NCBI GenBank assembly: GCA_008632985.1
Contig: QPGO01000231.1
Span: 28,013 to 61,112, forward strand
Reading direction: 5' to 3'
DNA: 33,100 bases
Origin: Psammoneis japonica
Lineage: Eukaryota
Made by a program: the position numbers and the translations under genes. The notes under the pieces are model-generated. The model saw only the letters and a list, made by a program, of their open reading frames with translations. It was not told the origin of the DNA and made no database searches. Positions 1 through 32,079 of this stretch are shown one piece after another; positions within the stretch are counted from its first letter, which is position 1, and each line of letters opens with the position of its first letter.

Positions 1-526
1 TGTCATGGCTTGCTGGATGATTCATTGCAAGACTGGCTTTGCTGTCACTCAACCTCTCACTTTTTTTGTCTCACTCTTTGGAGTGAAACATTTGGTGGTT
101 TGTGTGATTTGTCATTTGGCATCAGCATGGTGCTTGTTGTTGTGCAAGTTTGCAGTTTGCATTCACACCTTTGGCAACCCACCCACAGCCATCACAAACT
201 GCCAAGGCAAGTGCATCAATGAGGAGCACAGGCAGCCCAGTGGGATGATCTTTCAGCAACATTCACTTGCTGGTTTAACAATCATTGAAGGCCACCAAAA
301 TGACAAAAAAGTGCAGTCCCACCATGCTGACCATGTTGGCAGCATCCACAATGCAGCAGTGCAAGTTTTCTCCCTTGTGCACAACTGCTGCTCTTTGTGA
401 TTGTCTGTGGGGGTCACATGATGTGTCATTGTTGTGCCATTGTCCAGAGCAGAAATCCAGCATGAGCACAGAAAAAAGGCAAAAAGCACTTGAGTGGATT
501 GACCCAAGCATCAAGCAAAATGACAG

Positions 527-1860
527 ATGGATTCCAACAATGTGAATCAGTGTGGCAACAAACAAAAAAGGCACAGTTTGGCGTTGGTTTGGCAGAAGTC
601 TCTTGGCCTCAACAATCCATGCCTGCCCATGTTGGTGCTTGAGAGTGAAGCAGATCATCTGACAACTTGTCACAAAGAAATGAAGCAGCAGATGGTGGCC
701 AATTTGTGTGTCATGGCTGACACCACACAGCACATGGCACCACAAGAACAGTCTGTTGTGGATGGTGCAGCGCTCACAAGAGGCAGAATGCTGATGACAC
801 ACCAGGCAACAGGATGGCATGCAATGAGGCAACAGTGGATTTCAAAGGTGACTTTGAAGATGAGGGCCACATTGTGGATGACTCACCAACTGATCAGTCA
901 ACAGACTTTGAGTCATGCACTCAGGATGTTGTTGAATGTTCTGACAACATGGAGGAGGAGACCAAAGGGGCAAGTTTTGAGAAGCTGCACTTGTGGAATT
1001 TCCCAACAGCAAGCTCAACAACCCAACCAACTGACACCAAGACACCTTCCCAACAAGTTTTAGCTCATTCACCATCAAAATGTGTCAATGCTGGGAATGG
1101 TGTGCTTGCTGCTGCTCAACTCCTCCACTGCCATCAACAGTGTGAAGGAGGCAACACTGAACAAAAAGCTGCTGAAAACTGTGGGCAGGGACACTGTGAA
1201 GCATTTGTCAAAAAGAGTTTCAGTTGACAAAGCAAGAGCAATGGCCCAAGCCAAAGTGGAAAACCCAGCCATTGAGCCAACTGGATTGTGTGTGTGTTGA
1301 CAGCAAGAAATGTGGACTTGGGCCACGAAGAAGTCCTGGGGCCAGCAGCTTGATTCGCACATGTTGATGCAAAGAATCGGGTGGGATGAGAGGCGCCAAT
1401 GAAACAAGGTCAAACAACAAGTCTAGAAGACATGTCTCACAAAATGAGACAAACCATTGTGGCACAGAAACACAGATTTGTTGGTCTAGAGACAAGTCTT
1501 GTTGGCCCTGAAAGCACTGGTCATTCCACTCATTTGTGTCAAGACTGTTCTGCAGGGAGCCCATGACAAAAGCTTTGATGCTGCAACAATGTTCCAATGT
1601 GACATTTGACAGTTGCGATTGAAACCAAAATTGAACAAAAATGGATTGTGCCACGTGTCATGTTTGACAACACCAAATCAGCATTTTTCAACAAATGAAA
1701 ATGGCTTGGCACAGCACACTGCTTTTGAAGGGTGCCACCAGCGGCCCACACAAACTTTGGATGATCCACTTGTGCCTGTGCTGTAACATCATCAGGCAGT
1801 CCACACTGGAAGTGTGGGTTTGCCGGTGTTGCAGGGCAAAGGCACTGACAACACTTTAAA
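527..1860 (+). pseudogene. Unidentified decayed coding sequence inside the hypermutated block
   Basis: Consecutive overlapping + frames (527.., 814.., 1082..) read as protein-like, including an acidic tract (DFKGDFEDEGHIVDDSP...DNMEEE), interrupted by TGA codons and frame changes. No family recognised. Confidence 0.3.
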
Positions 1861-2384
1861 AAACAGGTCTGTGCTTTTTTGTCATGGTTGAAATCACACT
1901 CATTGCACCATTGATGTCATGGCAAAACAAATGAAGACAGTGAATTGAAGAAGCATCCCAAATGCAGCCCTCACTGAAAGATCCAGCACGTGGAGCCAAA
2001 GTTCATGTCGCCAGTGCCGCCAAAAGCACCGAGATAAAAAATGAAAAGCAATCTTGTCTCCAATGCTCATTTTTTGTCCCCATGCATCTCATTCGTCAAA
2101 TTGACATGTCTTTCAGATTCTGCTCAATTTTTCTTGGAAACACCCAAAATTTCCAGCTAGAAGGAAATTTGACATGCAGCGGTGGTGACCTCAGAGGGCA
2201 ACAAAAGCCACCAAGGCTTGTGGAGAAGCTTTTGAAAAATGAAATTGTGGGCCAACATGTGAATCTGTCATGGGAGACACAAGCAGTGGCAAGAGCTTGC
2301 TCCTTTCATCAACCACTGAGATTAAACTGCCTGGCTCTGCATCCAAAACAGCCACTGCACACTTGACACCAAAGAAGAGCAGAG

Positions 2385-4975
2385 TCAAAATGTGTGTGTG
2401 GTGTGTGTGGGGGGGGGGGGGGGGCTGGAGAGGACAAAGCTGAAGTTGAGACTGAGGATTTGAGAGGCCCAGAGTTGGGGGGTTGCAGTGTGATGGGAAG
2501 AGCCAAAGCAGTCTGGTGAAAGTTGTTTCCAGGCCTCATTGGAGTGGGCAAGGAGGTTGGAGGGTGCAAGAAGTGAGTTGGTGAAGGCGGAGAAGGATGC
2601 TTGGGAATCGGACAGGGAGGATGGGCTTGACCAGGGCAGTTTGGGAGGAAGGGTTGGGATGGAGGAGGAGGCAGTGGTGGAGGTGCCAAAGAAGAAGACA
2701 TGGAAATGGCACCCAATTCCTCCAAGGTGGTTGAAGGTGAAAGGGAGGGGGAAGAGTCTAGCTTGGTTGATGGCATCAATGATGTTGGAGCCATGAGCAG
2801 ATGATGCAAAACTGCCAAGGAGCTTGTCCCGTGCACTGCTGAGGTGAGCCTTGCTTGACAGGTTTTCAGGGATGGGCAAACCAGGTGCAGGAGGTGGGGG
2901 AGCTGGTGGTGCGGTGATGTTGATGGCCAAGAATTGATGGGTGGATGGGGCATTTGGTGGTGTGGAGCGGGGGTGAGTTGAGTGCCGATGTTGGCAGGGT
3001 GTTTGAGGGGGTGGTCATCTGAGATGCCGGCAGGGTTGAGGCATGCTTGTTGGCGAGAGAGGCACAGACCGCAGAGTGGCCCCAGCATTTTGGTGACGGC
3101 GCAGACAGTGTCTCGGATGTGATTTGACAGATGGCCTTTGTGCATTTTAGAGCAGGCAAAGGTGTGATTGCCACATGGGTCTGGGTGGACGTGGCCACAT
3201 GGGCAGTCATGTTGGAGGAGGTTAGAGGAGATGATTGGAAACAGAGCTTCCGCAGAGAAGAAGCATGAACAAGTGCGGTGGGAGCCGTTGGAGGCATGAG
3301 CTTGGGAGAGAGAATGAAGGCACAGGCTTGCCAGTGGAAATGGCAAGGATGGAAGGGCTGGCTGCACAGAAGGATTGGCAAGGATCAGAGGGAGAGTGCT
3401 GTGCTTGTGATGACACAGATGAAAGCGTTGTGAAAGACCCCAGAGGTTTTGGTGTTTGACAGTGTGTGTCAGGGAGGTGAGGGAATGGGAGTCAAACTGA
3501 AGGAGGGTGGGAGCACAGTGGCGGAAGATGCAGCAGAGGGAAAGGGTGGAGTGTGGGTTGGACCATGAGCCAAGAGCAGTGGAGTGGCTTGAGGGAAGGT
3601 GTAAGATGGCACCGCTGCTGAGTGGGATGCTGTGTTTTGTGTGCCGCACAGATCTGATGAGGGAGGTCACAAGAGCTGGGACGGCAATGGCAGAGATGTT
3701 GTGACAGCTGGTGCTGCCTGAGGAGACAGGTGAGCTGGTGATGAGTTTGGCAGCAGAAGGGAATGGATTGGTGTGTTTGGTTGGGTGGGCAAGAAAATGC
3801 AGGGAGTGGCCAATGATTTTGTCAGCAAAGGGAGATGTCCATTGAAAGGGGAGTGGGAGGGTGTTGGATTGCATCAGGTTGCAGCATGCATCAGCTGCCA
3901 GAAGGTGGGTGATGGAAGGGATGGAGCATTTGTGGAAGAGTGTGCTTTGTGTCTGTTTGTCGGTTGGGTGGGTGGCAAGGCGGCGAAGGTCAGTGGCAAA
4001 GGAGGTGACCTTGTCATGGAGAAAATTGAAGGCAAAGGTGGGTGAGCCGATGGGTTGGCCGAGAAAGCAGACGCCGGTGGTGATTTCAGGTTTGATGTGG
4101 GGGTTGTTGTCGCGGGGGTTGAGGAAGGCAAGGGCTTCAGAAAGAGCTGCAGCATTGGCGGGTGGGAGGCGGTTGTTGGGAGAAGTGCCGGTGATGGATG
4201 CAAGGTTTTTTGTCTTGGAGGCATTGAGCTTGATGCCAAATTGGGGGCCGCAGGTGGAGATTTGCTCAAGGAACCAAGGAAGCTGAGAAAAAGGAAAGGA
4301 AAATGTGGGTGTTGCAGACACATGAGGAAGTGGCAGATTTGGAGCAAGGAGAAAGTCAGTGATGCAGCTCATCGTTAACAGGGTTGAATGCGTGGACCAG
4401 AACAAGGCAGGAAAAGACTGAGCTGAGGGGGCAGCCTTGAGCAAATCCTTGGGTTGAGAAAAGGAGGACCATTGCAGGTGATGGTAATGACACCAGCAAG
4501 TGTTGGGATCTTGTCAGAGTGAGTCAAAGAAAGGCAGTGAAGTGTGGCATTCATCGGAGTTTGCAAGGGTGTCACGGCAAGTGTCACGGGAGCATTCATC
4601 GAAACAGTTGGATGGGTCAAGGAAGAGGAGAGCTTTTGTTGGTGCAGAGTCCGGTTGAAAGAAGCATTTGATGTTGGTGCAAGCAGCATTCACAAGGTGG
4701 TTGAGGCCACCTTTGATGCCAACTCCGAATTGGCCAGAGAGCAGGAGGTTGGAGGCAAAAGTGGTGGCAAGGAGGAACATGACAAGGGTGCCAATGATTC
4801 TTTGAAGGGCCATGCCAACACCAATTGGCCAGAGTTTAGAAAGGTTGGATGAATCCTTGTACAGGGCAAGGAAGCAGTTGGATGAAAAAGCAGGTTTTTT
4901 TTTGATGTGGGGATGTGCAGGTTGGTTGGATTGGAGGATGGAGGGAGGGACAACAGAAAATCTTGGAGTTCAGAG
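2385..4975 (-). mobile_element. 5'-truncated, decayed non-LTR retrotransposon with RT and C-terminal restriction-like endonuclease (CRE-like RLE clade)
   Basis: Minus-strand motifs in order, across frameshifts: LALYKD..SKLWPIGVGMALQR (=LRPIxVG), QFGVGIKGG, LDPSNCF..CSR (=LDxxNxFN..SR), GFAQGCPLS, MSCITD (decayed YxDD), GPQFGIKLNASKT, GVCFLGQPIG, zinc knuckle CPCG...DPCGNHTFAC...H, HIRD, HPANI (=RPADI), AINIT (=AIDIT), PFTFNHLGGIG. End coordinates are approximate. Confidence 0.88.
2391..2424. repeat. (TG)n microsatellite plus G homopolymer at the 3' edge of the retrotransposon
   Basis: tgtgtgtgtggtgtgtgt followed by a run of about 16 G. Confidence 0.85.
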
Positions 4976-7509
4976 CTTGCAATGCTTGCAAATTTGGCTG
5001 ATGTCTTTGGGGTTGTCGCAGCTCGCATCTGCACTGCACAAAATGCAACAGTGAAATTCCGTTGGTTTCCTGCCACAATTTCCTCTGTTTTGAAATGCAT
5101 GGAAGGGACATTTTGAAGATGTCTAACAGCTTGCAGGGCTTGGAATTGATCCAAAGCAGGATGGCATCAACTCATTGCTTGGCACACCATTTTCACATGG
5201 CAGCCAAGTCACGTTGGAAAAAGACAGAATGTTGAGTTTTGGTGACCCTCAAAACAGCCCTTCCATGACTTTGTGAAGCTATGACATGTCTTTGCTTGCC
5301 TGGTGGAGAATGTGCATGATGTCTCCATTTGTCCCAGCAACAATGCCTTGCAAATGCAAGGATGTGAGTGTTGCAGTCTGAGTCTGCACAACACAAACAA
5401 GCAGTTTGCAAAAGAAGAGTGCAAAACTTTTCCAGCACACATGCATTGGATGCATGCATTGTTCAAGCAGAAGAAACAACACACACACAGTTGTGTGTTG
5501 TTGCAAATGTCAATCTTGTGTGACAATCGTGGATGCCTGTGAATGGCAGATTGATTGCACAGAACTGATCAGAAGTCTGAAATTTCAAATGCAATCAACA
5601 GATGATGTTGACACACAAGGCATCAATGTCAGTTGCATCTGGACAATCTGTTGTCATGATCACATTCTCCAAAAGGCCTTTGCTCTGTGGGAGCAGCACA
5701 AACACTTTGGGCCATTGAGAACTTGTTCAGAGAAACCCAAACTCACAGAGCAAATTTCAGTCTCACAACTTCCACTTTTTGTGATTTGTTCCACTTTTGT
5801 TTGCACTTGTTCTTCAAGTGCAGCGCACATCACTGTCCTGTTCCCAGCATTTTTGGTTCTGCTTGACTTTTTCCAAAGAAGACGGCCACAGAATTTGTTG
5901 TCACATCTTTGTGGTGCAACACTCTGAAGCTTGCTTTCTGCAATTTCCATTTCAGCATCACTTCTTTCATCTCTTCAGCTTTGCCACCACTGCACATGCA
6001 GCAACAACACCTTTTCCAGTGCTTCTTAAAATCATGTGGGTGGGAGACTCTCCATCCACAAAGCACCATGGATTTGTGGTCTCCAAAATGACATCCACAG
6101 GAGGGCAAGAAATGCAAGCACAAAGCTCATGACAAAAAAATGTGGCAACCTCTGATCCAGGCTTGGCTTGAAGCTCACAGCTCTGTGGCAGATGAGCTGC
6201 ATGCTTCAAAGGAGAAAGGGACAACAAGGATTGTGAGATGAGAGATGAAATGTTGCACATGCATGCCAGTGTGCCTGCAGCCAATGAACTCAAACAAACA
6301 AAAGTCAGTTCAAGGACACTTGCACTCCAAATGTCTTTGGCAGGCACCAGGGCAAGGAGATCCAGGCCTGGAGTGTTTTCCCATTCTCCAGGGCAACAAA
6401 GCATGGTTGCCATCATGTGTGTGAACAAACCAGCAAGCACTTGAACAGACCAACTGCACCAGAAAGTTTTGAGGCTCACAATCCATGAGAGGCTCTTGCA
6501 CATTGACTTGCCTGCACTGCCACAAGAAAAAAAAAGAATGGCACCATTGGAGTGGAGTCATGCCCAATTTTTGTGGCATGTCCATGGCTTGAATGTGAGC
6601 TGATTGTGGCTGCATTGGCTCCAGATGATGCTCTGACCATTGCAGGAACTGGACAAATGCTGCAAAACTCATTTTCTTCTTCTCTTCAGGCACCCTGTTC
6701 TTTGTTTTCAGTCTGTGTTCATTTTGACCTTCATTGTCTGATTTTCGGTGCTTCAATTTGTTGGGATTGGTGATTGTGATGGCTCCAGGGTGCAGGTGGC
6801 TGAGGTGCAGTGCGCTGCTGCACACTTTTGGGAGAATTTTTGGAGCTTGGGCTTCAACAAGATGTCACAGTTTGAAGTTTTTTGTGTGCCCATTTTTGAT
6901 GGCTGAGGACCAACAAGGCAAGCTTGCAGTGACATGAAGTTGTCAGCCCTGGCACCTGTGCAAAAGATTTGGGACTCACTGAGGTTGTGTTGTGCTTCAC
7001 AACAGCAGAAAATTCCAGTCAATGCAATGACAGTGCACCTGACTGCACCCACTGGGCATTTGGTCTTTGTCCATGTGCAATCCATGCTGTGCATTGGGCA
7101 AAGCCAATTTAACAAAGAGTGGCACCAAAATGACACTTGACAAACAAAGCAAGGATGTCAACATGAAAAAGCCACAGACTGCCTTGCATTTTGTTGGACA
7201 AGCACGTTGTCATTCTGTTCAAGGTGGGCACACTCCTAAAAAGGCATTGTGTTTCTCTCTGGATGGAGCATCAACATTGTTGCCCCTTGTGTCATTTTTT
7301 GCATGGTTGCTTTGTTTCACAGCATCCATGCTTGACCAAGACAGACAAAAAACTCAGGCACTCTTTTGTTTGTTTGGCAGGTGTCAGCATAAATGAACAA
7401 GCTGGTGGCTTCACCATCACAAAAACAAAAGAGCTCCATCTTGTGGCAGCCCAACACACTCTTGTTTTATTCGGGGCAGGATCCTCCATGAGTTGACAAG
7501 CCTGGCATT

Positions 7510-8340
7510 CACATTGACGCACCAAACAACATGCCAAGAGTGCCAACACAAATGCAACACAGAACCGTGTGTGCCACAATGAGCAACAAACCATTTGTGG
7601 CAAAGGCACCCATGTTGTCAGACAGATGAGATCATTTGCAATGATTGTGGTGTCTCAGCAGTCTCACATCAACTTGACTCACTCACATGACAGCAAGCAA
7701 CTTGCCATCAAAAAACAGTGCAGATGCCCAAAGAATTGCCAACGTTGTTGTTGGCATGATTTTGTGAATGCTTGCATTGATTCAAAAGAGAGTGCAGGGC
7801 ATGCAGCAGTGCCATTGTGCTGTGATGAAGAAATCAGACTGCACAACCCAATGGGGCACAGAGAGATGGTGCAGAGGACAGGAAAAGGAAGCCATCGTCA
7901 GCGCCGTTTGCCCTCGGGGTGTTTCCCAGCTCAAATGCCTCTGCACATGAGTGGTGAAGGCAATCTTGTCAAAGAAAACAAGTGAGAAAGTGAAACAAAA
8001 GCACTGCATGATTGGATTGCAACAGAGAGCGAAAACGGGCATCGAGCCGTGTGGTGTGTCAGCGCAAAAATCTGTTTTTTTTTTTCCATCTTGCGGGGTT
8101 GTCAGCCGATTGCCTTCCAACAAGCAATGCATGTTCATTCCACATGACAGCAAAGACCAGTGGACAGCGTTGGCGTTGTTAAAAGGATTGCATCTGGTCT
8201 AAAAAGCCGCTCCGATTCATTCTCATGGTGTGTGGTGTTTTGAGTTTCGAGGTGTGATACGCAAACGTGACTGATGAGTCCCGTATACGCTCATAAAATC
8301 GCGCGGTCTGAGCTCGTCTCGCGCGTCTCAGTCGTTACCG
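7510..8340 (+). repeat. Diverged ~0.85-kb segmental duplicate, copy A (hypermutated); paralogue at ~18255-19010
   Basis: Colinear matching blocks, e.g. acattgacg (7511/18255); tgcttgcattgattcaaaagagagtgca vs tgcttgcttgatccaaaagacagtgta; ttctcatggtg; acgtgactga(a)tgagtcccg; ctcagtc(g/c)ttaccg. Confidence 0.85.
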
Positions 8341-10043
8341 TAAAGTGTACGTAGGACTTAGTAATAATTTTGAAAGTACCAAGATCTCACGAATGTTCTA
8401 CATACGAAGTGATAGTATCGATTATACAAAGACACACAAAAATGATAGTGTTTGAGAAAATTAGCAACGGTCGGTCACGACACAAACAAAATCTCTCGAA
8501 AGCTTGCTCTTCGTTCGCTTCACAACTCGTTGTCTCGCACGATGTGTTGTTGTTCGCCAAGCAACGATTGCCGCGATCGCCCAGGATGGCTCGCCCTTCT
8601 TGCGGATAATAGAGAGCTAGCTCTTGTTTGGTGTTCCACAACTAGTCATGCTTGTTGACGTGTTGTCTCTAGGTGGCGTAGGTGTTGCCAGTTAAGTCCA
8701 GAGGTCGGGGCAAATCGAATGCGTCTCTCCGGCCTTGAGTCCATGTCACTCTCGTGTCTTTGAGCGCAGGAAGTTGCCTGTTCGCTTGACCCGTCAGGTC
8801 ACGGCTGTTGAAATAGACAGCAGCGTTCGTCTGTGAAGCAGCAAAAGCTCGCCAAGCAGATCATGCCGTTGACGGAACGCGGGTTTGGGGTTCCGTCGTA
8901 TCAGTGACATGATACGGTAAGTCTTCACTCGTAGGGAGTGTTGATTTAGAACGCGGTTGACTCGCAAGTTCTCTTGTTGTTGCCGTAGTACGTCCCCCCT
9001 TTTTCTTTTTTTTGGATGGTAATCCACCCGGAAAATAGGAGAAAGCTTGAGCGCCATCTCTTGGTGGTGCTCTTGAGGCAATATACCCTACGCAACCGAT
9101 TCAATTGCGACTTTTGAGAATGGTGTGCTTCAATTGCTTGAAACACCCCTTGAACCTTTACAATAGAAGTAGAAATACTAAAAGTATGATGTAGCAATCT
9201 TTCTTGCATGTAATTTATTCCGTACGTGTGTCAATGGACTACGATGACGGTCGTAGCGCTTGAGATGTCGTTGCATATCTTGATTTCATCGTTTTTGTGT
9301 TTGTACCATGCTGCTCTCTTTTTTTAGATGGGTTCCACGATGGGGTATTTGTTACGGTATGCCCCAACACGATATGTGTACTGGACTGTTTCTGCCAGCG
9401 AGTTTTGCTGTGGTACTTCTCAAAACGCGGCAAGTTGCGATACGATGAAGAACGGAGTCTATGTTGTGAACAATGATAAATCGAGTGATGCTGACATTAT
9501 TTGTCATTGTAAGCTACAGTACTAATTGTTGTAGGTGTAGACTACAATCCGGTGCCGACTACTCGCATGTTTCTGCTTGCTACGGCGGCAGCCTGCAATG
9601 TAGCAAGACCGGGAATGATGTGGAAGGAGTTACCAGACGACATTCCTCGCCACGACTATTTCCCCCGATATGGTCCTCTGAGTATGCTCCTGTTGACGCG
9701 GAATTCGGTTCGAGCATAACGAACGAAGTTGATTTCCGCACCTATGTTTTCTTTCTTGGACGTGCGTGACTAGTCGTCGGAATGCCAGGGCAAATCTACG
9801 GGGAAGCGAGCTGGAAGAAAGAAAAGGCCGCTCGTGTCGTCGGCTGGCAACAAAGAATACGGTAATAAGCCCCAGGTACGGTCTGCTTGGGCATAGCCCG
9901 AGAAAACAGCTAGTGAAAAGTAAAGAATACTGTAGGTAGCAGCCTATATGTCTTGTGGGAGCTCACACTACTTTGTCGACATGACAGTACTCTCTATAGT
10001 CAGCATTAGGCATGTCCTGCACCAACTTCTTGTGGAACGATAA

Positions 10044-13000
10044 TTAAGTTTCTTCTGAGTATCCCAGTGAGTGAGCGTGTCTGGGCTCTATTATCTCCTC
10101 GTCGATGCTTTCTATTTCTATTTTTCTGTCACCCAGCATCAAAACAAGACCCTTTAGCTGGGAAACATCCTGTCCGTAGCGCCTAAGTCTACCACAACCT
10201 TGACGGCGAGGAGTATTGTACAGGTCCACTGGGGCAAGAGCGCTCGCCGCCCCGCTCCCCCTTTAAAGACAGAATTGCATCAACCCCGGAATGGTTCTCT
10301 ATTGCGTACGATAGGGTGGTAGTCAGAGAGCGTGTCCAACTCAATGCCTTCTCTCTTGCTTTTGCTGAAAGAGCGACCACATACATTTTGCAGCGCCAAT
10401 GCCATCAAAGAATTGCTCTGAGAACGACACGTGACACGGGAAAGATTCTATGACCACAGCAGTGGACATTCTTTGAGAGTTGAATCTCCAACTGACGCCT
10501 CGAGCGCTGTTCATTGTGATTACCCACGGTTTCCCCAAAAGTTGTTGCCACATGTTCGTGGAAGTATCAAAATAGTCTGCTAGAACGGATGTATTGACAT
10601 GACACTCAAAGGTTACTCAAAGGTAACTTGGTGTGTGGATCTAGCCTATGAACAACGCCGCTCCTGACCTGAGCACCGGCCACAAAGTTCCTAGCTTTTG
10701 TTCTGAACAGGGCTTCATCCATACCTTGAAGATCATTGATGAAGGTTATCGTTGTTTCTGGCATGGTCAAACTTAGCGAAGCCGTAGTCTTTTGGGAACC
10801 GGGCGATGTCACCGAAGACAACACCGCCGCAGACTGCTGATTATGCAATACCTTCCTGTCGCTCGAAGCTTCGATACCACCATTAGATTCAAGTTGTAGC
10901 GCCAGTCGTTCAATTCGTGATGCCTCTTGCTCGCTGATGTGGACAACTTGCTCGTCTTCGGCTTCCGACCCGAGAGATTGTGAAAACCCGGAACAAATGG
11001 CTTTCGCGAGAGCTGGTTCTGCATTGAAAACACCATATTATATATCGGCGACAAGATGACGAGTTTGATGTCAACGTCAATAAAACTCCTTGCTCTTGAC
11101 TTCGTCGAGACTACCAAATTCACCTTTGCGGGTTCCACAATTTGCAGCGGACTCTCTAGAAACCTTCCATGTGCACTGTATATCTCCATTCCTTCGCCAT
11201 GCATTTCTACATCAGTGCTGAAAAGTCTGCCGCCTTCGATTTTAGACGCACGAGACATCTTGGCTTTCCATGCCCCCTGAAGGGCGATCGCCTCCATTAC
11301 CCGCCCCGTACAACCTGGAGTTGATAGAACCATAGATGCTCTTCTCACTGCATTGGACGAGTATCCAACATCAACCAGAACGACGCTGCAACTTCCGGTG
11401 GATATCGAAGTAGAAGTCGATGAAACATCATCTTTGGATGGACGAAGGACGTTTCCGCAGCCTCCCCATGCTCGTTGAAGTGAACCTCAATTTCTTTCTC
11501 GTCGTGCGAAGAGTTTTCTGACCCTGTGAGCTTGCCCTCTTCCGTAAGACTGCCACTGCTTGCAAGTGATACGAAGCCCAGCACGTCAGCCATTGCATCC
11601 GGAATGAACACAAGGCGTAGTGACCCAATGCGCAAAAAAGTTCGCTTGATTTGTTTCCTTTCTTCACAAATTCAAATCGAAATACATCATTTTCAACATC
11701 CTCTTCGCGATTGTCCACCCGGGATACAAGGGATCGGAAGTCCCTATCCACCGCCTTCAACCTTCGATCGTCGCAATCAAGGCATAGCAATTTCATGTCC
11801 ACGAGCTTTGTTTCTTCGTCCGGTATCACAGAAAATGAAATGGACGTCTTCGCGGCAGCTCATCGCACAATGCGAGCGTCGATATCATCACCACAAAGCT
11901 CGAGCGACATGACGTCCACCAAGAAATATCTATTACAACAACGCCAGCATGAGAAATGCCCTGCCTGAGATTTCCTTCGCGCAAGGTGCGACGCCTACTT
12001 CAGTTGATGCGCTAGACGCATCGCCAATTTCATAGAACGTTCCTCATTTTCATCGACGAGGCTTGTGCGGTCGCCACCACCACGCAGAAATGAATCACTT
12101 AGGCCAATGTTCAATTCAAGCGTATTCATCATCTGTTCACACTGCGCCTTCGACATTAGAAATGAAGCTTGGGAAACAAACACATCGTCTGTTGTTGTGC
12201 TGTCCCTTCGCCAATTGGTGGAAGTTCCACGTCGATAGAAATTGCGGTCGGCGTTTCTACCATCGCCCTTCCAGCGTTATCTTGCAGCGACAGCTCTGAA
12301 AGCCAGAGACTTGCTGTTGAAAGAGCACCCGAATCAGGAGGAGAATGGTACCGTACGTTGAGGTCTCCAGCGTGGAGGGTAAGGTGTTCTGGAGAGTAAG
12401 CGGCTTGCGGTATAATAAGGTCGGCGCCGATGGCTCTTATGGCAGAAATTATCTCCCCCCCCCCCCCACTTACAGAACTAGCAATCTCAATCGCAGCATC
12501 TTTTACCGATGAAGCAGCTTCCGCAAAAAGCGCGCTCAAAATGACTTCCGTAATATATTCAACCAGCGTCAATACCTGCGAATGTATAGACGGGTGATAG
12601 GTTGATCTTCGCGCAAGCGTCGCAGGTATCGACACCCTCGTCCTGAAGTGATAATGATAGGATTGCTTGACGCCCTATGCTGTATTGAACAGAGAGCAAA
12701 CTACTCGTAGTTGACTGGTGCGGGGCGAGTCCAAGAAGAGTTTTGTACGATTGCCGCGTTTTCCATTTAGCACTTCGAACATCCCCAAGCTCAAGCGAGG
12801 CCTTCGTATTGCTCTGCTCGTCGTTCTCTGAGGAATGAAAACTCACTTTTGTGTCAGACATTATATTGTCATCTCAAAAAGCGGTAGATCTTCTGTGGCA
12901 GAATTCAAGGATACTCGAAGTGCCTCATCTCGGCCTTCAAAACAAAGAGCCGAGCTTTCGCCTTGGATATCGAAAACTCATCAGACTCGAAGCTTTTCAT

Positions 13001-15630
13001 GAGAGATTTCTCGTTGAGGCAAAGGTAATGGTGACTCAATCGCAGACAGCCGCGGCGACACCTCGGCGAGCGACAGGCGCTTCTGTGGCAGAGAGAATTT
13101 CGACCGTACCGCTCTCACTGCCTGGATTGCTTTTGGATTCCACTGAACATATAAACTCGAAAATGTAGCATCGACAAAATTAAGCGCCACGGTTTCATTC
13201 TCTTTCCGAAATTGTGTAATGTCAACAAATTCAGTACAGCCAGAGAAACTGTCATCAAAGGCACCAAGCTTCTCTAATTCCGCAAGAACATTGCACTCGT
13301 CGTTTTCCGCAAATGACGCTGCTGGTTTTGGGAGGTTTGAATGAGCCAACAGTCGCTGCTCCCATGGAAAGTCACTTGATAAACGGTCCAAAGTCCAAAA
13401 CCATCCCGTTTTCAGGCGGCAAGAAGCACCTCGATCGCCCGTCGAAGACGCAGACGATGACACGGAAACCAGGTGCGCCTCTAAACCGCCCCCCGTCATA
13501 AGGGACGGCACATATTAATAGCAGGTGCAACACGATAGCGAAGTGCAGAACAATAAGGTCATAGAGACCACCTTCAAGTCCTGTGGTTTTCACTCATGGT
13601 TGTTGCTTTCGAAGTGTCTTGAAACCCAGCAGACGACCTCTTCAAGATAGAGCTCGTCACTGATGTTGATCTCGCATCGCGGCCTCCGTCATGTTCGACC
13701 TCATCGAGAATGGACATACCGCCCGCATCGACGACAGTTTTAACACCTCTCTTTGCACTTACATCTTCTATAACATCTCGCCAAGTACTGAGCACAGATA
13801 CGGTCCTTTTGACCTGAGTTGGAGATATACGAAGCGAATCCGTAGGTAGAACGCCACACGTACAGGTACGGGGCGCTCGTCATTGGGAGCTATTTCTAAC
13901 CCCATTTTGAGATTGAGTGAGAGTGGCTCAATTACAGCATCGGCCTGCTCTTCTTAAGGCAACTTGAGTTTTGTCATAGGGTCATCCCAGTTCAACTGAC
14001 CCGTTTTCCCTGTAACAAACATTAGATTAGACACCACAAGTTCGCTATAATCCTTGAGAGGATCCGGTTTCGTAGTGCTTCGCTTCGCTTTACTTGAGAA
14101 CCATTCCATAACACTTTGCGGCGGCTCAATCTTGCCGTATTTTAAGCTGAAGTGCCCCAAATCGAAGACAAGCACATCGGTAGTCGGATCAACACAACTT
14201 TGTGGAAGGATGATGATGGGGGCGAAGACGTCGAAATCAACCATCCAGATAGTATTCTTCTTCGTTTTACTTTTCCAGGCATCTGCAAATGCAGTAGATA
14301 GCTGGTCCGACACTGCAGCACTTGCTGCCCTCGCGGCTGCGGCGGTTTCGTCAACAATGTCCACCGCCCCAGCCTCCATAGTATGCGACCCGGCGTCATA
14401 AAGAGATCAACCGAACCACTCAAAGACTTTTCTAAGAGTGGGTTCTGCCGAAAGTGTTGCGACGCGGATACTGATACGGTATTGGAAAGCGAGAAGAAGG
14501 CCTGTACATCCTTCAGAAATACCGATGAGGCCACCAACGAAAAGCTGCCATGCGCAGAATCAATTGTTGAATGCACCAGTGGTTGAAGCCCCCTCCTTTT
14601 GTGACGAGTACCGCAAGCTACTTCGCATGACAGTAGTAGGGAACAAGCTCAAGGTCTCATCCCACGTGTGATCAAGTCGATTTTTGAATGCACCCAGGGT
14701 AAACTTGATGTCGTCAAGCTTTAAATTTGTTGAGACTTCCGATTCAGAGGTTTGCTCGAGACTAAATGCTTCGAGCTCTTTCATTTCTTCTACTGTCAAG
14801 AATATTGGAGGATCTTCCTCGTCCAGTGACACATCTTCGCCCTTTGAAGCCCCCCAAAACGACGGCAGATACGACTTTTTGGCGCCCTATTCTGAAACCT
14901 TTTTCGTCGACTCGTGTTTTTTCTTTTCTCGTTCGACTTGTGCATCAGTATAATGTTCCGCCGTGTCATTGCCTTCCAAAGAGACAACCCGAACTTGTTC
15001 TGTGGTTATCACGGTCTCCACTTCTTGTATCGACAAAAGGCTTCAACCAAGGGCAAGTCTCATGATGAGCATGGCGCTTGTAATGCGATAGGGCCTCTAT
15101 ACTTGTTGCGTTTTTGAAAAGCTGTGTAAAACTCGACCCAAGAGCGCCTGCCAATGCACCGCACCGCATATCTCCACCATTCTTTGGCTGTTTCTTCGCT
15201 AACCCTATTTAAGGGACGATACTCTGGAAAAAGAGGTATGGCAAAGCTCTGAGAATGCCTTATGCCACCGCAATCTTGTTGCTCAACTCCAGCTGATTCC
15301 GCGACAGGAACATTGAGAGCTGTGAGAGCTCAGAAGACTGCAAATATCGGAAATCGATACACTCGAGTTGATCGAATCAGAACCATCCGATTGTCGCCCT
15401 TCCGGGACAGACTTTGGGATTGAAAAACTGTAGGTCTCATCATCAAGACATGCTCAAAGACATTGAATGCGCAGCACTTTGCAAAGGAACGACTTGACGA
15501 CATTCTTGCTCGTTATCGTGCGGTCTACAAAACTTCTGTTTCCATCCTTGTCGGTGGTAACGAGAGAAAGTGAAGACAAAACGACGCCAGCCGAGCATCC
15601 TGCACCTTTGACACATGCAGACTCTCCAAA
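10044..15630 (-). pseudogene. VPS13: VPS13-family lipid transfer protein, truncated at both ends, with frameshifts and stops
   Basis: Chorein-N-adjacent SAGVVLSSLSLVTTDKDG...KVLRIQCL; IWMVDFDVFAPIIILPQ...VLVFDLGHF; SLYVQWNPKAIQA; DYFD...MWQQLLGKPW. In-frame TAA at ~13954 and single-base losses in short homopolymers near 14400 and 13870. Confidence 0.85.
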
Positions 15631-16312
15631 TAGCGATAGTGTACGGTAATAGTCCATGTAAAAGGCGTCGAGTGAACGTAAGGAGGATAAAAAGGATCCG
15701 CAGAAGGATGTGTTGTCGACGATGTCATTTTTGCTTGCAACTTCGTTGTGAAAGTTGCAGTGACGTTCTTATGCTCTTTTAGTTGCTGCTTTTCCGCTGA
15801 CAACAGCAATATCACTCGCTTTACAGCAGATGAAACAAAGATGTGATTCAAACACAGTGCGATTGTCAAAAGATGGAACTCAAGTAAAGTATGTACAGCA
15901 TGTTCAGGAGCGCGCTTTATGAGCAACGGGCTTGGATTCGACAGGGCGACGTAGAAATCTACGAAAGTTCTGTACTAGCGAAACCAAAATTGGCTTTTTT
16001 CTCGACGATTTTCATTCGATCTATATTCATATACTTTAACGGTTAAGATCCTACCGTTAAGATTACTTATGAGAGTGAAACCATTGTCTTTTATCTGTTG
16101 GAAAAAGCTCGTAAAATTTTCAATCCGATCGAAGCTTTCGTCGATTGGAAACACGCGTAAAATGCATGAGTGGTGGTCTTCATTTTGTCAATGACAAAAT
16201 CAAAAAAATTCAAAACGGAAAAATCGAGCTCGTGTGCGACCTCAGTCCCGCCTCACGCGAGGCAACCGTCGCTCGCAATGGTGATGGCAAACAACAACCG
16301 TAGCCGTACTGT

Positions 16313-17958
16313 ATGGACGAATTCAAGAGACGCTTCAAAGAATACACTCCTGAACAACATCGAGCAGTGGCTGACAGGTATCTGGCCACAGCCGACAAAC
16401 ATCGAGCCGCTGTTGGACAAGCAAAAACCTCTGCTGATCTGAAAAGAGCTCAGAGCAAAACTAATTATCACAACCGCCTTTCACGGATGCACAAGGAAGA
16501 AGCCAAGAGGAAGGCAACCCTGCAGCGACGACGGACTTTGCGTCACGTGAAGAGCGAACAAGAAGCCGCTATGCCCACGAACAATCCCACTTCAGCTTCT
16601 AAAGCCAATGTAAATGCGAGTGGCGGGGATGCCTTCAGCACTCCTTTTGTTGCCCGTAGCCGCAGCACAAACAATGATATACCGAGCACCGGAGCATCGC
16701 CCGCAGGAGTGCGAATGTCTTCTACGCCCATAAATGCTGCCGGAGTGGAACTTCTAATGAAGTCTCCTGTTGGCCAGAAATCCATGGCGCGTGGTTACAC
16801 TGATCCGAGATTGCAGTTCCAAGCCATGTTGCTCGAAAACTTGAATAAGCACGGGGCTCTCTTGGACAAAAAGGCCGAGAAACAGGCGGAACAGGAAGAG
16901 ACTGCCAATCAACGAATCAACGTTGTCCTGGCAGAGCAAAAATCATCTGTGAATTGGCTGGGCAACCGAGTGCCTTTCTTGGAGTAAAGCGAAAGATGAG
17001 TAACGTCGAATGCGACGACAATGAAAATCAAGATCCGAACTCGGCTTCTCCTTTCTTGGGATCTCATTCACAAGTCGCCTCTCCCCATGTGTTGGGAAAC
17101 CCAAGTGCAAAGCGTCGACGATGCGTTAAGGCTTTGAGGCCCATGCTGGTGGACTCTCCGCCGAAATCCGAAATGGAGCCTACTGTGAAGAAGGAGCTTT
17201 TCCCAGGATCAAACAATTCTTTCACTGGCACGTCATCAGGATTTACAGCACCTTCACCTCCCACTGGAACCCCTTCTGCATCGACTTCGTTTGGAGCTGC
17301 TACCTTTGCTTTTCCTTCTTCTGCTACAAATTCTACTGGAGGAGCTACGACTGTTCCTGGAGCTCCTGCTTTCCATGTAGACATAACGAATCGCGGCACC
17401 CCGAACAGCAAACGGATTCGCAAGCCAAAAGCATCTGCTTCACCAGGAGCATTTCCATTCAGCATGCATCAAATCCATGCTCCTCTCACCATGTCAGCAC
17501 CTCAAGTCCCTGGCCACCAAGTTCCTGCCGCCCAAGTTGCTGGCGGCGGCCAGTCTAATGTGTACGATAACGGCAACGTATTATTTGCTCAAGTTCCCGC
17601 TGGAGGACCGACAGATCAAGTCAGGAAACCAAGTGTTGAAGAAGTGCGTATGCGGGATTCGCAAACCTTTGAAACCCAGTATTCTGACCTCGTTCAAAAT
17701 GCACCAAAGTCGGTAGAAGCGGACATTATTGTGAAGGAGATTGATGAATGTAAACGAGAGCTTGTAGCACTCGTAAACCGAAGCGACTCGCTCAGCAAAG
17801 ATGAATTTCAAGAGTTGTACGGTATTCTTCAGTCGAATCGGATGGACGCAATCAACTTCGATTCCTTCGTTGGCACTGTGGAGGACATGACAAACCTCAA
17901 GATGATCCGCAAGATTCTAAACCACTATGGCGATTATGTAGAGGACCACTACTGGTAA
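16313..17958 (+). CDS. Orphan low-complexity (S/P/A/T-rich) protein, split into two overlapping ORFs (16313-16987, 16954-17958) by a probable frameshift, or two adjacent genes
   Basis: Two long same-strand ORFs (224 and 334 aa) overlap by 34 nt with no obvious GT-AG intron at the junction. The first has a helical basic N-terminus and the second a helical acidic C-terminus. Confidence 0.55.
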
Positions 17959-18210
17959 GGAGAGGCAACCAAATCTTTCATCAATGGGAATTTTCGGTGC
18001 ACCTGCCATGGGAAGTATAAAACTTCTTAGTCGGCACGCCTGCCCTGAGAAGTTTGAAACTTCTTAGTAGGCACGCATAAAGCACACGCGGTGCTTCCAA
18101 CCGCTACTTATGAATGTAAACTAAAAATGTTGTTAGTCTAGATTGCGTTTGAAGAATTCTGGTTCTACGGTACATTTCGTCTTAAAAGCGTCCTTCGCGC
18201 TGCTCGGGGG
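17895..18210 (+). repeat. Direct repeat copy 1 (last ~20 codons plus 3' flank of the orphan gene), containing two tandem 37-nt hairpin units
   Basis: Aligns with 20530-20820 (about 19 substitutions and 3 small indels by eye) and more loosely with 20975-21150. Confidence 0.92.
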
Positions 18211-18254
18211 AGTCATCCCGATTTTTACCGTGAGAAGTCGAGACGACAGATTGG

Positions 18255-19010
18255 ACATTGACGGCTAAAAACGCAGTGTAGAACCGTAATAAAGCGATAA
18301 GTACCTAAAGCTTTCAATAATGAGTAAGAAAAATGCAAAATAGCAAGAAAGTGTCGTTAGTTGCTTGCGTTCGAGGTGAATATCATCATTTTTCGCGGCA
18401 GCAAGTTGTGAGCTCCACAAATCATACACTTACCGTTGTCTACCATCAAATAATGCACACCATAATCCATATTATCAATGAAATCGACCATCCGTTGCTT
18501 GCTTGATCCAAAAGACAGTGTATGACACGCAACAGCCCCATTTCGATTGATGCAGAAATATCAGCCGCAGACAAATGGTTCAAATGTCGACATGAAACTA
18601 AGAGCCGGTGTTCCTCGTTAGGGATTTTAACATGGTCGAAATGCTCCCTATATAAGTGTATGAAACGAGCGTATCAAATAAAAAGAACGAGTCAGTGACA
18701 CGAAAGCGCAATGCGATTGTATCGCGACAGCACACGAAAAAGAGCAGCGGATGGTGATGCAATTACAAAATCCATTTTTTGACCTTTCGATTGAGCAATT
18801 ACCTTCAAACAATCGATGAAAATAGTTTCTATATGATGGTAGAAACTATTCTAAAGCCCTGCTGTTGTTGAAAAGGTTTGGCAATAGCATGAAATGCCGT
18901 TCCGATTCTCATGGTGAGTGGCGTTCGGAGGGTGTGCGCATACGTGACTGAATGAGTCCCGCCTAACTTCATGCAGCCGCGCGCTCGCTCCGCTCGCCTC
19001 AGTCCTTACC
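18255..19010 (+). repeat. Segmental duplicate copy B (unmutated); upstream/promoter region of the 5-phosphatase gene
   Basis: Colinear with 7510-8340, retains CG and TA dinucleotides, and ends about 30 nt before the ATG at 19039. Confidence 0.85.
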
Positions 19011-19038
19011 GGCGTAGCTGCAGTGACACGCATCGACA

Positions 19039-20413
19039 ATGACAACAACAACAATGGATGAAGTGCTACCCCTGATTAATTCAATTTTCGTGGGTAGCTT
19101 CAATATGAACAACGAGGACTTATCATACAACGATGCTGCACGTTGGTTGCAAGAGGCGAAACATGCCGATCTAGTCGTGCTCGCCATGCAGGAATGCGGT
19201 TCATGCCGCTTGGACGGCTCCATGCCGTTGCCAGAGAATCAACAACAGCAAGAAAGTTGGTGTCGAAAACCTCAGCTTGATCGAAGCGATACTGTTCTCC
19301 ACAGCATACAAGATGCATTGAATGACGGCTACAAAATTGTTGCTGACGTTGCCATGGGCGAAAGCGCGACTGGGAGAAAAATTGCTATTGACGGGGAGCC
19401 CGATACGGAGTGGTATGGATATATACGAATGATTGTTCTGGCAAGGACAGGTATGTGAGAAGACCGTTACTTTCGATTCCGGACGTGGTCTTCATCTCAT
19501 ATTTCGATAACTTCTTGTTCACAAATCCTTCTTTCTTTCATGAAGAACTCGCAGACAAACTATCTCCGCAATGCAGGACGCTGGTCTGTCCTGTTGGGTC
19601 CAAGTCGTCGGTTGATTCTCTTACATCTCAATCACCGGATTATCCTGTTGATGCGAGTCCTGATAAGGGTGCCGTTTGCGTAGCTTTAGGAAGCGACTTG
19701 TTGCTTGTGAATGTTCACCTCGCTGGTACAAACCAGTATAATGTGAACGAGGAGCACTTTGATGAAATCAGAAAGCACCAGTTAACGCTGATTCATGAAA
19801 TGTGTCAACCTTACGGGCATTGTATTGTTGCTGGGGACTTTAATTTTCGATGCGAAATCCATCCGAATGAAAAGAGTCGCGGCGGACTAGACTTTCAGGC
19901 TGTCCACGACATTGTCAAGTCAGCTGATTGTGAGGCTATTGGCAACTTGTATCGTAAACATGATCGACTTATTCAGCTCATCAATAGCAATGGCGATACT
20001 GTGATCCCGTTACTTTTGAAGGACACAAGTGATTCCTTTTGTTACGGATTCAAGGATAATGAGTACGTCATGCCTACTTTCACTTTTACACGGGATCTTA
20101 AGCGAGAAGAGAAGAGCGGCAAGAATTGCCGATCCTACTCAGATAAGCGTACGCCATCGTGGACAGATCGGGGTAGGTGGGCTCAGTTTCAAAGTTCCCC
20201 TTGTTGGTTTTCCGTGTCCGTAAGGTCTCACCAACCAGTCGCTCTCTTTCTTGTGCACGCCCTCAAACAGTTCTGTTCTCGAACTCGTTGCGGGACAAGC
20301 AGGGATTTTATATCATATCCGTCAAAACTCACCCCGACATTGTAGTAAGCGACCATATTCCGGTACATTGTCTATTCTCTCGCTCGAGAAGCACTTCAAA
20401 TCAGCTGGACTGA
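19039..20413 (+). CDS. Inositol polyphosphate 5-phosphatase family protein (IPPc/EEP fold); exons 19039-19450, 19555 (or 19546)-20172, 20271-20413
   Basis: Family motifs IFVGSFNMN, DLVVLAMQE, KGAV, NVHL, GDFNFR, HDRL, PTF, RTPSWTDR|VL, SDHIPV. Two phase-1 GT-AG introns (GTATGT at 19451; GTAGGT at 20173 to AAACAG at 20270) join the ORF pieces in frame. Confidence 0.92.
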
Positions 20414-20529: not shown

Positions 20530-21195
20530 CCTCGAGATGATCCGCAAGATTCTAAACCACTATGGTGATCATGTAGAGGACCACTGCTGGTAAGGAGAGG
20601 CAACCAAATATTTCGTCAATGTGAATTTTTGGTGCGCCTGCTATGAGAAGTATAAAACTTCTTAGTCGGCACGCCTGCCCTGAGAAGTTTGAAACTTCTT
20701 ACTCTAGGCACGCAGAAAGCACACGCGGTGCTTCCAATCGCCACTTATGAATGTAAACTAAAAATATTGTGGTCTAGATTGCGTTTTGAAGAATTCTGGT
20801 TCTACGATACATTTCTTCTTTTCGGCAAGCCCTCTTGCGGATATCATTGCTACGTTTGCCTTGAGAAGTTTAAAATTTCGTAGTCGGCACGCAGAAAGCA
20901 CACGCGGTGCGTTCTTCTCGCTTCGCGGGTGCCAAAAAAGTTCGGTGAGTCCTCTAGCGATGTCATTGCTACGGCTGCCTCCAGAAGTTTGAAACTTCTT
21001 AGTCGGCAAACAGATAAAGTACACACGGTGCTTAAACCCGCCACCTACGAATATAAATGAGAAATATTGCAGTCTAGATTGTGTTTGAAGAAGTCTAGTC
21101 CTAAGGCATGTCTCTTCTTAAAAGCGTCCTTCGAGCCGCGAGCGGGGGGCTTTAGTTGTTATGGGATAGCTGTCAAAAGTTCGCCGAGTCCTCTC
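20530..21195 (+). repeat. Direct repeat copy 2 with internal amplification: four 37-nt hairpin units and repeated flanking modules
   Basis: 20530-20820 matches 17895-18183. Hairpin units start at ~20638, 20675, 20856 and 20975. A ttcgg-x-agtcctct-like module recurs at ~20821, 20941 and 21180. Confidence 0.9.
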
Positions 21196-32075: not shown

Positions 32076-32079
32076 AAAC

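Follow-up and report, generated by a model that had tools for sequence, protein, structure and literature searches.

A sharply bounded TpA- and CpG-erased domain in the diatom Psammoneis japonica: probable TpA-targeted hypermutation overlaid on CpG decay of mobile-element DNA

Introduction

The closest described system to the one considered here is the hypermutation of TpA dinucleotides in the chlorarachniophyte Bigelowiella natans. Of 302 new nuclear point mutations seen in mutation-accumulation lines of this alga, 231 were located in an integrated giant-virus region and a virophage region, where rates were ∼1000x background; A>G and T>C changes, in every case on TpA, made up 230 of the 231 (Mettrop et al., bioRxiv 10.64898/2026.01.13.699255). 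The same preprint reports 124 clusters of 1-kb windows that are poor in TpA and rich in CpA and TpG, together with 324 TpA-poor genes enriched in reverse transcriptase, endonuclease-reverse transcriptase and DDE domains, and it proposes an ADAT2-like protein as a candidate DNA adenine deaminase. The present analysis concerns a 33,100-nt stretch of the genome of the diatom Psammoneis japonica (GenBank assembly GCA_008632985.1, contig QPGO01000231.1, positions 28,013 to 61,112 of the forward strand; hereafter the window). Its first 8,255 positions form a domain of mobile-element DNA that is nearly devoid of TpA, poor in CpG and rich in TpG and CpA.

Repeat-induced point mutation (RIP) of ascomycete fungi turns CpA into TpA, lowering GC content (RIPCAL, PMC2621366). 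A TCG-targeted, RIP-like hypermutation has been described in Pucciniomycotina (Horns et al. 2012, PMC3318451), and CG methylation of transposons is DNMT5-dependent in the diatom Phaeodactylum (PMC9998398). A literature search for a TpA-specific mutator, with most subscription journals outside its reach, found only the B. natans preprint and none for diatoms or other stramenopiles. An earlier note on this DNA, made from the sequence alone, knew of no described system with this signature; as far as the text of the preprint goes, the B. natans conversion of TpA to TpG/CpA is one. The evidence presented below makes it probable, in our view, that two separate transition processes, a TpA-restricted A:T to G:C hypermutation and ordinary CpG decay, rewrote dead mobile-element DNA in place.

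Results

Composition of the erased domain and its edge

Dinucleotide counts delimit the domain at positions 1-8255 of the window. TA occurs there 26 times against 549.3 expected from base composition (observed/expected ratio, o/e, 0.05), and CG 88 times against 465.2 (o/e 0.19). The surplus lies in CA (880 versus 446 expected, o/e 1.97) and TG (966 versus 573, o/e 1.69). The remainder of the window (8256-33100) has o/e values of 0.62 for TA, 1.04 for CG, 1.17 for TG and 1.10 for CA, and its GC content of 48.0% compares with 48.3% in the domain. AA is not depleted in the domain (o/e 1.19 versus 1.14 in the flank), and neither are CA and GA. Relative to flank-like dinucleotide ratios, 710 TA+CG are missing and 687 TG+CA are in surplus; since the deficit and the excess nearly coincide, conversion of TA and CG into TG and CA accounts for the composition. 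The CpG depletion is itself balanced by TpG/CpA gain, as decay of 5-methylcytosine (5mC) at CpG would leave.

The combined Rho_TA and Rho_CA+TG cut-offs of the B. natans preprint (10.64898/2026.01.13.699255) were applied to 1-kb windows. All 8 of those covering 1-8000 fall within them (Rho_TA 0.01-0.07, Rho_CA+TG 1.56-2.06), as do 0 of the 25 covering 8001-33000, where the minimum Rho_TA is 0.39.

The right edge of the domain is sharp but staggered. CG is back at near-normal density from ∼7896 and TA only from 8258, and the edge segment at 7890-8255, with TpA erased and CpG kept, holds 2 TA (o/e 0.08) and 16 CG (o/e 0.78). It is followed by repeat-rich DNA of normal composition at 8256-9338 (TA o/e 0.72, CG 1.25). 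The window begins within the domain, whose left end lies outside the 33,100 nt. The manual count of ∼26 TA in 8.2 kb given by the earlier note proved exact, and its report of few CG and many TG/CA agrees with the ratios above. The abrupt return to normal that it placed near 8255 holds for TA; the edge as a whole is staggered, CG being restored further to the left.

In all six frames, 1-8255 contains 37 stop-to-stop frames of at least 90 aa. These frames are spurious, their number and length arising because TAA and TAG are gone, and gene finders would probably call false genes in this region.

Support from sequencing contigs

Public sequencing data consist of three runs from one sample of one study, possibly the source of the assembly, with no library type on record. 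Contigs of one run (X1) were compared with positions 1-20000 of the window at ≥80% likeness. Matches within the domain include 4723-5668 (word depth 122.6, 11 differing letters), 6427-7242 (depth 128.5, 5 differing letters) and 7245-8390 (depth 123.2, 4 differing letters), the last of which spans the domain boundary; contig depths on the unique flank are 89.6-115.7. These contigs, at a depth of ∼120 over the domain, support both its bases and its junction with the flank.

The 1741 contigs matching positions 1-20000 comprise 221 at ≥99% identity, 331 at 95-99%, 526 at 90-95% and 663 below 90%. Transitions prevail among their differences (277 A>G, 271 G>A, 216 C>T and 237 T>C); each transversion type counts 40-81. 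Summed contig depth, which is a rough proxy only for copy number, ranges from 130 to 4361 along the domain and stays at 130-223 in 6004-8004. The domain is thus a mosaic of repeats and near-single-copy pieces. The top summed depth of the 20 kb compared belongs to 8256-9338 (1187 and 5662 in its two bins), the frames of which are without a Pfam match; this segment is a high-copy element of normal composition that adjoins the erased domain.

A retroelement remnant within the domain

The element identified in the domain is a remnant of a reverse-transcriptase (RT) retroelement at 2424-4912 on the minus strand, recognised by family tblastn, profile and pairwise matches. In the tblastn search of the RT family against the window, this segment aligned with residues ∼368-1215 of ∼1250-aa proteins (E 1e-64 to 1e-91), and no further match to the family was found elsewhere in the 33,100 nt. 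Because the alignment starts only at residue ∼368 of the relatives, the retroelement is 5'-truncated. Its C-terminal part is covered by the open frame P0001 (734 aa; 2312-4513, minus strand), identified from its translation and protein matches, which shares 33% identity over 454 aa with a 1265-aa protein carrying an RVT_1 domain (E 3e-50). A HMMER pass over 1.84 billion representatives returned 247 relatives of P0001 at E≤0.001, 85 at 1e-10 and 13 at 1e-30. A (TG)n tract followed by a run of ∼17 G, read directly from the sequence at 2385-2425 on the plus strand, adjoins the 3' end of the remnant.

No credible Pfam match was obtained for 14 + 37 frames of the domain, the RT copy of the window included. 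Among the relatives, RVT_1 is the only Pfam domain in 9 of the 10 long ones scanned, and it is also found in P0002. By eye, a C-terminal Cys/His cluster and an 'RPAD...DVT' stretch can be recognised in the family; these are reminiscent of the restriction-like endonuclease of R2/NeSL-type elements and may correspond to it. Outside the remnant, the rest of the domain has multi-copy depth and contains no gene recognisable by Pfam or by the family search. A metagenome scan with P0001 alone found no relative, and in a scan with the family member P0041 a single match turned up, 23 residues long and located on an unrelated contig with 64% GC.

Positions 2000-5000 carry a strong skew of G over C on the plus strand (0.35-0.51). 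This skew seems to belong to the RT family and not to stem from the mutator: Thr, His, Pro, Leu and Ala are abundant in the relatives, which corresponds to a C-rich coding strand.

Protein and paralogue comparisons point to mutation

The amino acid composition of P0001 is 0.1% Tyr, 2.0% Arg, 7.9% His and 4.4% Cys; most of its relatives have ∼2-3% Tyr, 5-7% Arg and ∼1.5% Cys. A 33-row alignment was built from P0001 and 32 long, Tyr-normal relatives, with four members used as controls. Tyr occupies 394 cells of the relatives; at these, P0001 carries Cys in 21.8% of cases and His in 14.2%, with Tyr outside its 7 commonest residues, and the controls retain Tyr in 22-32%. At the 888 Arg cells, P0001 retains Arg in 13.3% versus 35-44% in the controls, with His as its commonest replacement. 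The conserved columns follow the same pattern. In the 11 columns with Tyr in at least 30% of relatives, the residue of P0001 is Cys five times, His twice and never Tyr; in the 15 columns with at least 40% Arg, it is Arg four times, His three times, and Gln and Cys once each, so that His, Gln or Cys stands in 5 of the 11 conserved-Arg columns that are changed. These replacements match the products that would be expected of TAY becoming TGY or CAY and of CGN becoming CAN or TGN. The presence of both Cys and His at Tyr positions indicates that both strands were hit.

A comparison at the nucleotide level is provided by a repeat unit at 8109-8340 (plus strand) that crosses the domain boundary. Short-word blastn aligned it at 67% identity over 234 nt with 18798-19011, a paralogue of normal composition. 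Left of 8255, 0 of the 8 TA of the paralogue are kept in the domain copy, 4 being now CA and 2 now TG; right of 8255, 2 of 5 persist and 1 now reads TG. At 2 of the 6 CG sites of the paralogue left of the boundary, the domain copy has TG or CA. When domain and remaining window were compared as 30-mers in a purine/pyrimidine code, no hidden homologue emerged.

Differences between the window and the X1 contigs were examined for the best 40 of 1589, 34 of which lie inside 1-8255. YpR (pyrimidine-purine) interchanges account for 14 of these 34 best-supported differences: 2 rows with TA in the window and TG elsewhere, 4 with CG in the window and TG or CA elsewhere, 4 with CA/TG in the window and TA/CG elsewhere, and 4 that amount to two CA-versus-TG double changes. 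Such double changes would be expected if one ancestral TA or CG had been resolved differently in two copies. To judge from these alignments, the TA- and CG-poor state is evidently the product of mutation and not an ancestral composition.

TpA loss and CpG loss come apart

The two losses differ in their distribution. In the retroelement region (2001-5000), CG stands at an o/e of 0.28 versus 0.09-0.10 elsewhere in the domain, at a uniform TA o/e of 0.03-0.065.

The footprint is also apparent in relatives of the retroelement. P0041, P0045, P0072, P0073, P0108, P0132, P0029 and P0119 are distinct members of the RT family that are Tyr-free or Tyr-poor and have Cys or His at Tyr positions. Among ten Tyr-poor library relatives, 8 have Cys+His at 18-44% of Tyr cells, compared with 0.7-13% in eight controls. 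In P0041, P0073 and P0029, Cys+His fills 26-44% of Tyr cells, but 36-40% of Arg cells still hold Arg; in P0072 and P0042, Tyr and Arg are both lost. As read from these translations, the change of Tyr to Cys/His in other RT-family elements shows that the footprint is not unique to this locus. The edge segment 7890-8255 and the Arg-retaining, Tyr-poor relatives together indicate that TpA loss occurs without CpG loss, and TpA loss seems to be the faster of the two.

Sequence context of the losses

The TA dinucleotides that survive in the domain are strongly biased in context. Eighteen of the 26 stand in YTAR, a context that holds 166 of the 1039 TA of the flank (odds ratio 11.8, p=4e-9); RTAY accounts for 1 of the 26 and for 319 of the 1039. 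Strand-symmetrised retention relative to the flank is 0.02 for TAT, 0.03 for TAC, 0.11 for TAG and 0.17 for TAA. A TA persists only if its A is refractory on both strands; the preferred target is therefore an A with a 5' T and a 3' pyrimidine (T-A-Y). The trinucleotides AAA, AAG, AAC and AAT remain at 0.93-1.31 of their flank frequency. For CG, retention relative to the flank is 0.09 in TCG, 0.13 in ACG, 0.18 in GCG and 0.25 in CCG. No strand-coordinated runs of TG versus CA were detected (runs test z=-0.27 in the domain and -0.3 to -1.5 in flank pieces).

The erasure is bounded by position

The homology of the repeat at 8109-8340 crosses 8255 and TA is lost only on the inside, which indicates a process that worked in place and within positional limits. 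One X1 contig at single-copy depth, that at 7245-8390, crosses the boundary within this repeat. The erasure extends beyond the retroelement and over stretches that differ widely in copy depth, and the repeat-rich DNA just outside the domain (8256-9338) is without it. This pattern would fit a process at the level of DNA that is bounded by position, such as a chromatin domain. It would not fit editing of each element before insertion, nor a copy-number rule alone.

Flanking genes and other features of the window

Beyond the domain, the window contains what are evidently ordinary nuclear genes. A VPS13-like gene at ∼9600-16000 (minus strand) is intron-split and of normal composition, with a Pfam VPS13_N fragment in 13957-14406. 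A coatomer subunit beta gene at ∼30700-32300 (minus strand) is likewise intron-split and of normal composition. The best named matches of its exon are all diatoms, Attheya at 61% being followed by Triceratium, Odontella, Cyclotella, Stephanocyclus, Coscinodiscus, Fragilaria, Entomoneis and Epithemia; over the coatomer segment, diatoms share 69-94% identity among themselves and 56-67% with the window.

A phosphatase-fold frame lies at 19392-20342 (Pfam Exo_endo_phos2, E 8e-07), with its best named matches in Bolidomonas and Triparma at 33-38%. Taken by themselves, the coatomer and phosphatase matches indicate an ochrophyte host, probably a diatom or near relative. Neither protein search returned a near-identical sequence, which speaks against B. 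natans, whose proteome and transcriptomes are public, provided that these are part of the library searched. On either side of the phosphatase-fold frame is a direct repeat of ∼290 nt with 92% identity (17895-18183 and 20530-20820), and shorter extra matches to 18004-18094 are found at 20857-21000. The direct repeat and the frame that it encloses may be a small LTR-like or duplicated unit; its composition is normal.

Two overlapping frames of 221 and 482 aa on the plus strand at 27073-29122 each contain the motif RIRWRPDRM, after which come a recurrent 'GD.PP.PTGVVA...P.YT..IP' stretch and a very acidic tail. Neither frame has a Pfam match. The interval 28001-29000 is low in TA (Rho 0.39), with normal CG and a CA+TG value of only 1.21.

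Discussion

A two-process reading of the domain

Features observed at this locus are its composition and mass balance, a state that is mutated in comparison with the relatives and the paralogue, two losses that can be separated, a flanking-base preference and an in-place boundary. In the mechanism that we propose for them, the A of T-A-Y on either strand would be turned into hypoxanthine by a deaminase that targets silenced or foreign chromatin, and the change would become fixed as G at replication. This hypermutation would have approached saturation here, with 95% of TA gone, and would end within ∼100 nt, at a boundary that is set by position and lies in a repeat copy. Separately, CG methylation of repeats followed by 5mC deamination would erode CpG more slowly and over a slightly different spatial footprint. 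The TpA step may be the work of a TadA/ADAT-like deaminase that acts on adenine in DNA and is guided to such chromatin; bacterial TadA naturally acts in a T-A-C context, within the anticodon loop. The CpG loss would be due to 5mC, and the whole presumably serves genome defence.

Most of what the earlier note had proposed about the setting and nature of the signature agrees with these results. The repeat part of its silenced-repeat setting is borne out by the RT remnant and the multi-copy depth, which mark the domain as dead mobile-element DNA. Its view of the signature as mutational rather than ancestral finds support in the Tyr and Arg replacements of P0001 and in the TA of the paralogue; most of the relatives are normal in Tyr and Arg. 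A second process at TpA beside CpG decay, also proposed there, is separable in 7890-8255 and in the Tyr-poor, Arg-retaining relatives. Its first candidate, a TadA/ADAT-like DNA adenine deaminase, is of the type proposed in the main text of the B. natans preprint.

A bolder version may be put forward tentatively, although we consider it doubtful. A chromatin-directed DNA adenine deaminase with T-A-pyrimidine specificity, a kind of 'reverse RIP', would be common to stramenopiles and rhizarians and perhaps ancient in the stramenopile-alveolate-rhizarian (SAR) group. It would outpace CpG decay, extend across silenced domains whatever their copy number, stop at sharp positional boundaries and be able to remove all TpA from mobile DNA. 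In its furthest form, the same enzyme may also deaminate C at CpG.

Alternative explanations

A single dual enzyme or pathway that reads both self-complementary pyrimidine-purine steps, TpA and CpG, deaminating A and C respectively (for instance a dual A/C DNA deaminase), is unlikely. It would account for the occurrence of both losses in one domain with one end product, and for the fact that both are strongest after a 5' T (TCG retention of 0.09 versus 0.25 for CCG, the A being always preceded by T). Amphioxus ADAT2 is said to edit both A and C in DNA, as cited in 10.64898/2026.01.13.699255. The losses nevertheless come apart, both in 7890-8255 (TA 0.08, CG 0.78) and in 2001-5000, where CG stands at 0.28 at uniform TA, and several related elements have lost their Tyr codons yet kept Arg. 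In the viral regions of B. natans, moreover, the text of the preprint gives 230 of 231 mutations as A>G or T>C on TpA.

Equally unlikely is a thymine route, in which a TET/JBP-type hydroxylase would modify the T of TpA in silenced DNA to 5-hydroxymethyluracil (5hmU) or a J-like base, and mispairing or misrepair would turn T to C. T>C at R-T-A is the same change as A>G at T-A-Y on the other strand, and the sequence data fit both equally. Enzymatic 5hmU has been tied to transposon silencing in dinoflagellates (2024 PNAS, PMC11572971). However, 5hmU pairs with A and is not known to be strongly mutagenic, and for B. natans the authors of the preprint prefer adenine deamination (10.64898/2026.01.13.699255).

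Error-prone repair of T:G mismatches, another candidate of the earlier note, fits poorly and is distinctly improbable. Here patch resynthesis by a polymerase-eta-like enzyme near deaminated CpG would change A to G at WA motifs, which polymerase eta prefers, and a single trigger would produce both losses in a methylated domain. Yet TpA is gone where CpG remains, in 7890-8255 and in the Arg-retaining, Tyr-poor relatives, and AA is not depleted (o/e 1.19 versus 1.14 in the flank). As reported in the preprint, the TpA mutations of B. natans also arise without C>T.

Slightly less probable again is an artefact, whether modified bases misread in sequencing or an assembly error in the region or at its boundary. 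The supporting runs come from the single sample described above, and the boundary falls within a repeat, both of which leave room for it. Against this, contigs at a depth of ∼120, equal to that of the unique flank, carry 4-11 differences per ∼1 kb and span the boundary; such a depth would not be expected of noisy long reads. The Tyr to Cys/His footprint in at least 8 other distinct library elements also speaks against an artefact, as does the same mutation type found by an independent laboratory with Illumina data in another alga, according to the text of the preprint (10.64898/2026.01.13.699255).

RNA hyperediting of double-stranded transcripts by an ADAR-like enzyme, fixed by reverse transcription before insertion, is very improbable. 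The one identified element is a retroelement, and the preference for a 5' U/T is like that of ADAR as stated in 10.64898/2026.01.13.699255. The erasure is however continuous over 8.2 kb at copy depths of 130-4361, with only 2424-4912 matching the RT family, and it stops inside a repeat copy. ADAR is an animal family and prefers a 3' G, opposite to the pattern here, where TAG is retained more than TAY, and hyperediting is not known to reach 95% removal.

There is next to no chance that the retroelement at 2424-4912, the part of the domain for which this can be refuted, was always free of TA and CG: although the G/C skew of 2000-5000 is apparently a family trait, most relatives are normal in Tyr and Arg where the window copy has Cys/His and His/Gln instead, the paralogue keeps TA where the domain copy reads CA/TG, and the TA+CG deficit equals the TG+CA excess.

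Weighing the two-process reading

Several points weigh against the combination of TpA-restricted hypermutation and CpG decay that we favour. Read support is not independent, the runs being possibly the assembly's own data. The polarisation of changes draws on relatives of ∼25-35% identity, on one paralogue at 67% identity with few sites, and on the best 40 of 1589 differences. The repeat-rich DNA at 8256-9338 is unmutated, so repetition would be insufficient for targeting, and the boundary inside a repeat, where site numbers are small, could instead reflect gene conversion or a mis-join, although a contig at single-copy depth spans it. No sign of processive action on a single strand was seen, and saturation would blur one. 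CpG is co-eroded here (o/e 0.19), and the word 'CpG' has 0 occurrences in the main text of the B. natans preprint. Finally, the deaminase and 5mC steps are ones that we infer.

Significance

RIP was long seen as a fungal speciality, and a TpA-erasing mutator was not published until 2026, for a single chlorarachniophyte. A footprint at saturation in a diatom, if true, would mean that the system is not confined to one species. The T-A-pyrimidine target, the action on both strands, the independence from CpG loss and the sharp positional boundary offer handles for finding the enzyme, and a natural DNA adenine deaminase with a defined context would be of interest both to genome defence and to base-editing technology. 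For annotation, such domains hide transposons from homology-based methods, as with the RT copy of the window and its missing Pfam match, and they produce long false open reading frames as TAA and TAG vanish.

Comparison with known systems

Fungal RIP resembles the process seen here in being a transition hypermutation limited to mobile or repeated DNA that produces extreme dinucleotide skew and leaves genes unrecognisable. In contrast to RIP, TpA is destroyed (o/e 0.05), CpA (o/e 1.97) and TpG are created and GC content is unchanged. Duplication alone would not seem to trigger the erasure either, since the adjoining repeat-rich DNA is unmutated; DNA of apparently near-single copy number, at a depth of 130-223 in 6004-8004, is erased. 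The CpG loss, strongest in TCG/CGA (retention 0.09 versus 0.25 in CCG/CGG), is like that of the TCG-targeted hypermutation of Pucciniomycotina, for which the abstract describes no TpA component (PMC3318451).

Decay of 5mC in CG-methylated transposons shares the loss of CpG with gain of TpG/CpA and would explain the 88 CG found against 465 expected. It differs in that TpA is removed here, which 5mC deamination cannot do. Animal APOBEC3 and ADAR editing also leaves deaminase-type clusters of transitions in mobile elements, with a preference for the 5' base. Such editing acts on cDNA or RNA before integration and is limited to the element, whereas the footprint here is domain-wide, stops inside a repeat copy and has as its target the A of a TpA with a 3' pyrimidine at the level of DNA.

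The B. natans system is the closest match. As set out in the text of the preprint (10.64898/2026.01.13.699255), it shares the TpA target, the TpG/CpA products and the action on both strands. It further shares the confinement of the signature to blocks of foreign or mobile DNA, with RT genes among the TpA-poor sequences, and the 1-kb window cut-offs that enclose 8 of 8 windows of 1-8000. The differences are several. The host here is a diatom, a stramenopile, and not a chlorarachniophyte. The domain is near-saturated, with a Rho of 0.01-0.07 versus 0.45 in the B. natans viral region, and its target is a retroelement and repeat debris rather than a viral insert. A mutation rate was measured in B. 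natans, whereas the locus here offers a footprint alone, in which the evidence for TpA-restricted A>G/T>C is indirect (TA of the paralogue now CA/TG in 6 of 8 with 0 kept, and Tyr cells with 21.8% Cys and 14.2% His). The B. natans mutations are almost exclusively on TpA; here CpG is eroded over most of the domain, TpA loss standing alone in 7890-8255 and in several related elements. Neither the 3'-pyrimidine preference nor a boundary inside a repeat is found in the main text of the preprint, from which the terms 'context', 'trinucleotide' and 'downstream' are absent.

The locus is best filed as an instance of the TpA-targeted hypermutation first described in B. natans, in another eukaryotic lineage, saturated and overlaid on CpG decay. 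To that system it adds a preference for a 3' pyrimidine, the separability of TpA loss from CpG loss, a boundary that falls within a repeat copy, and the footprint in related public elements.

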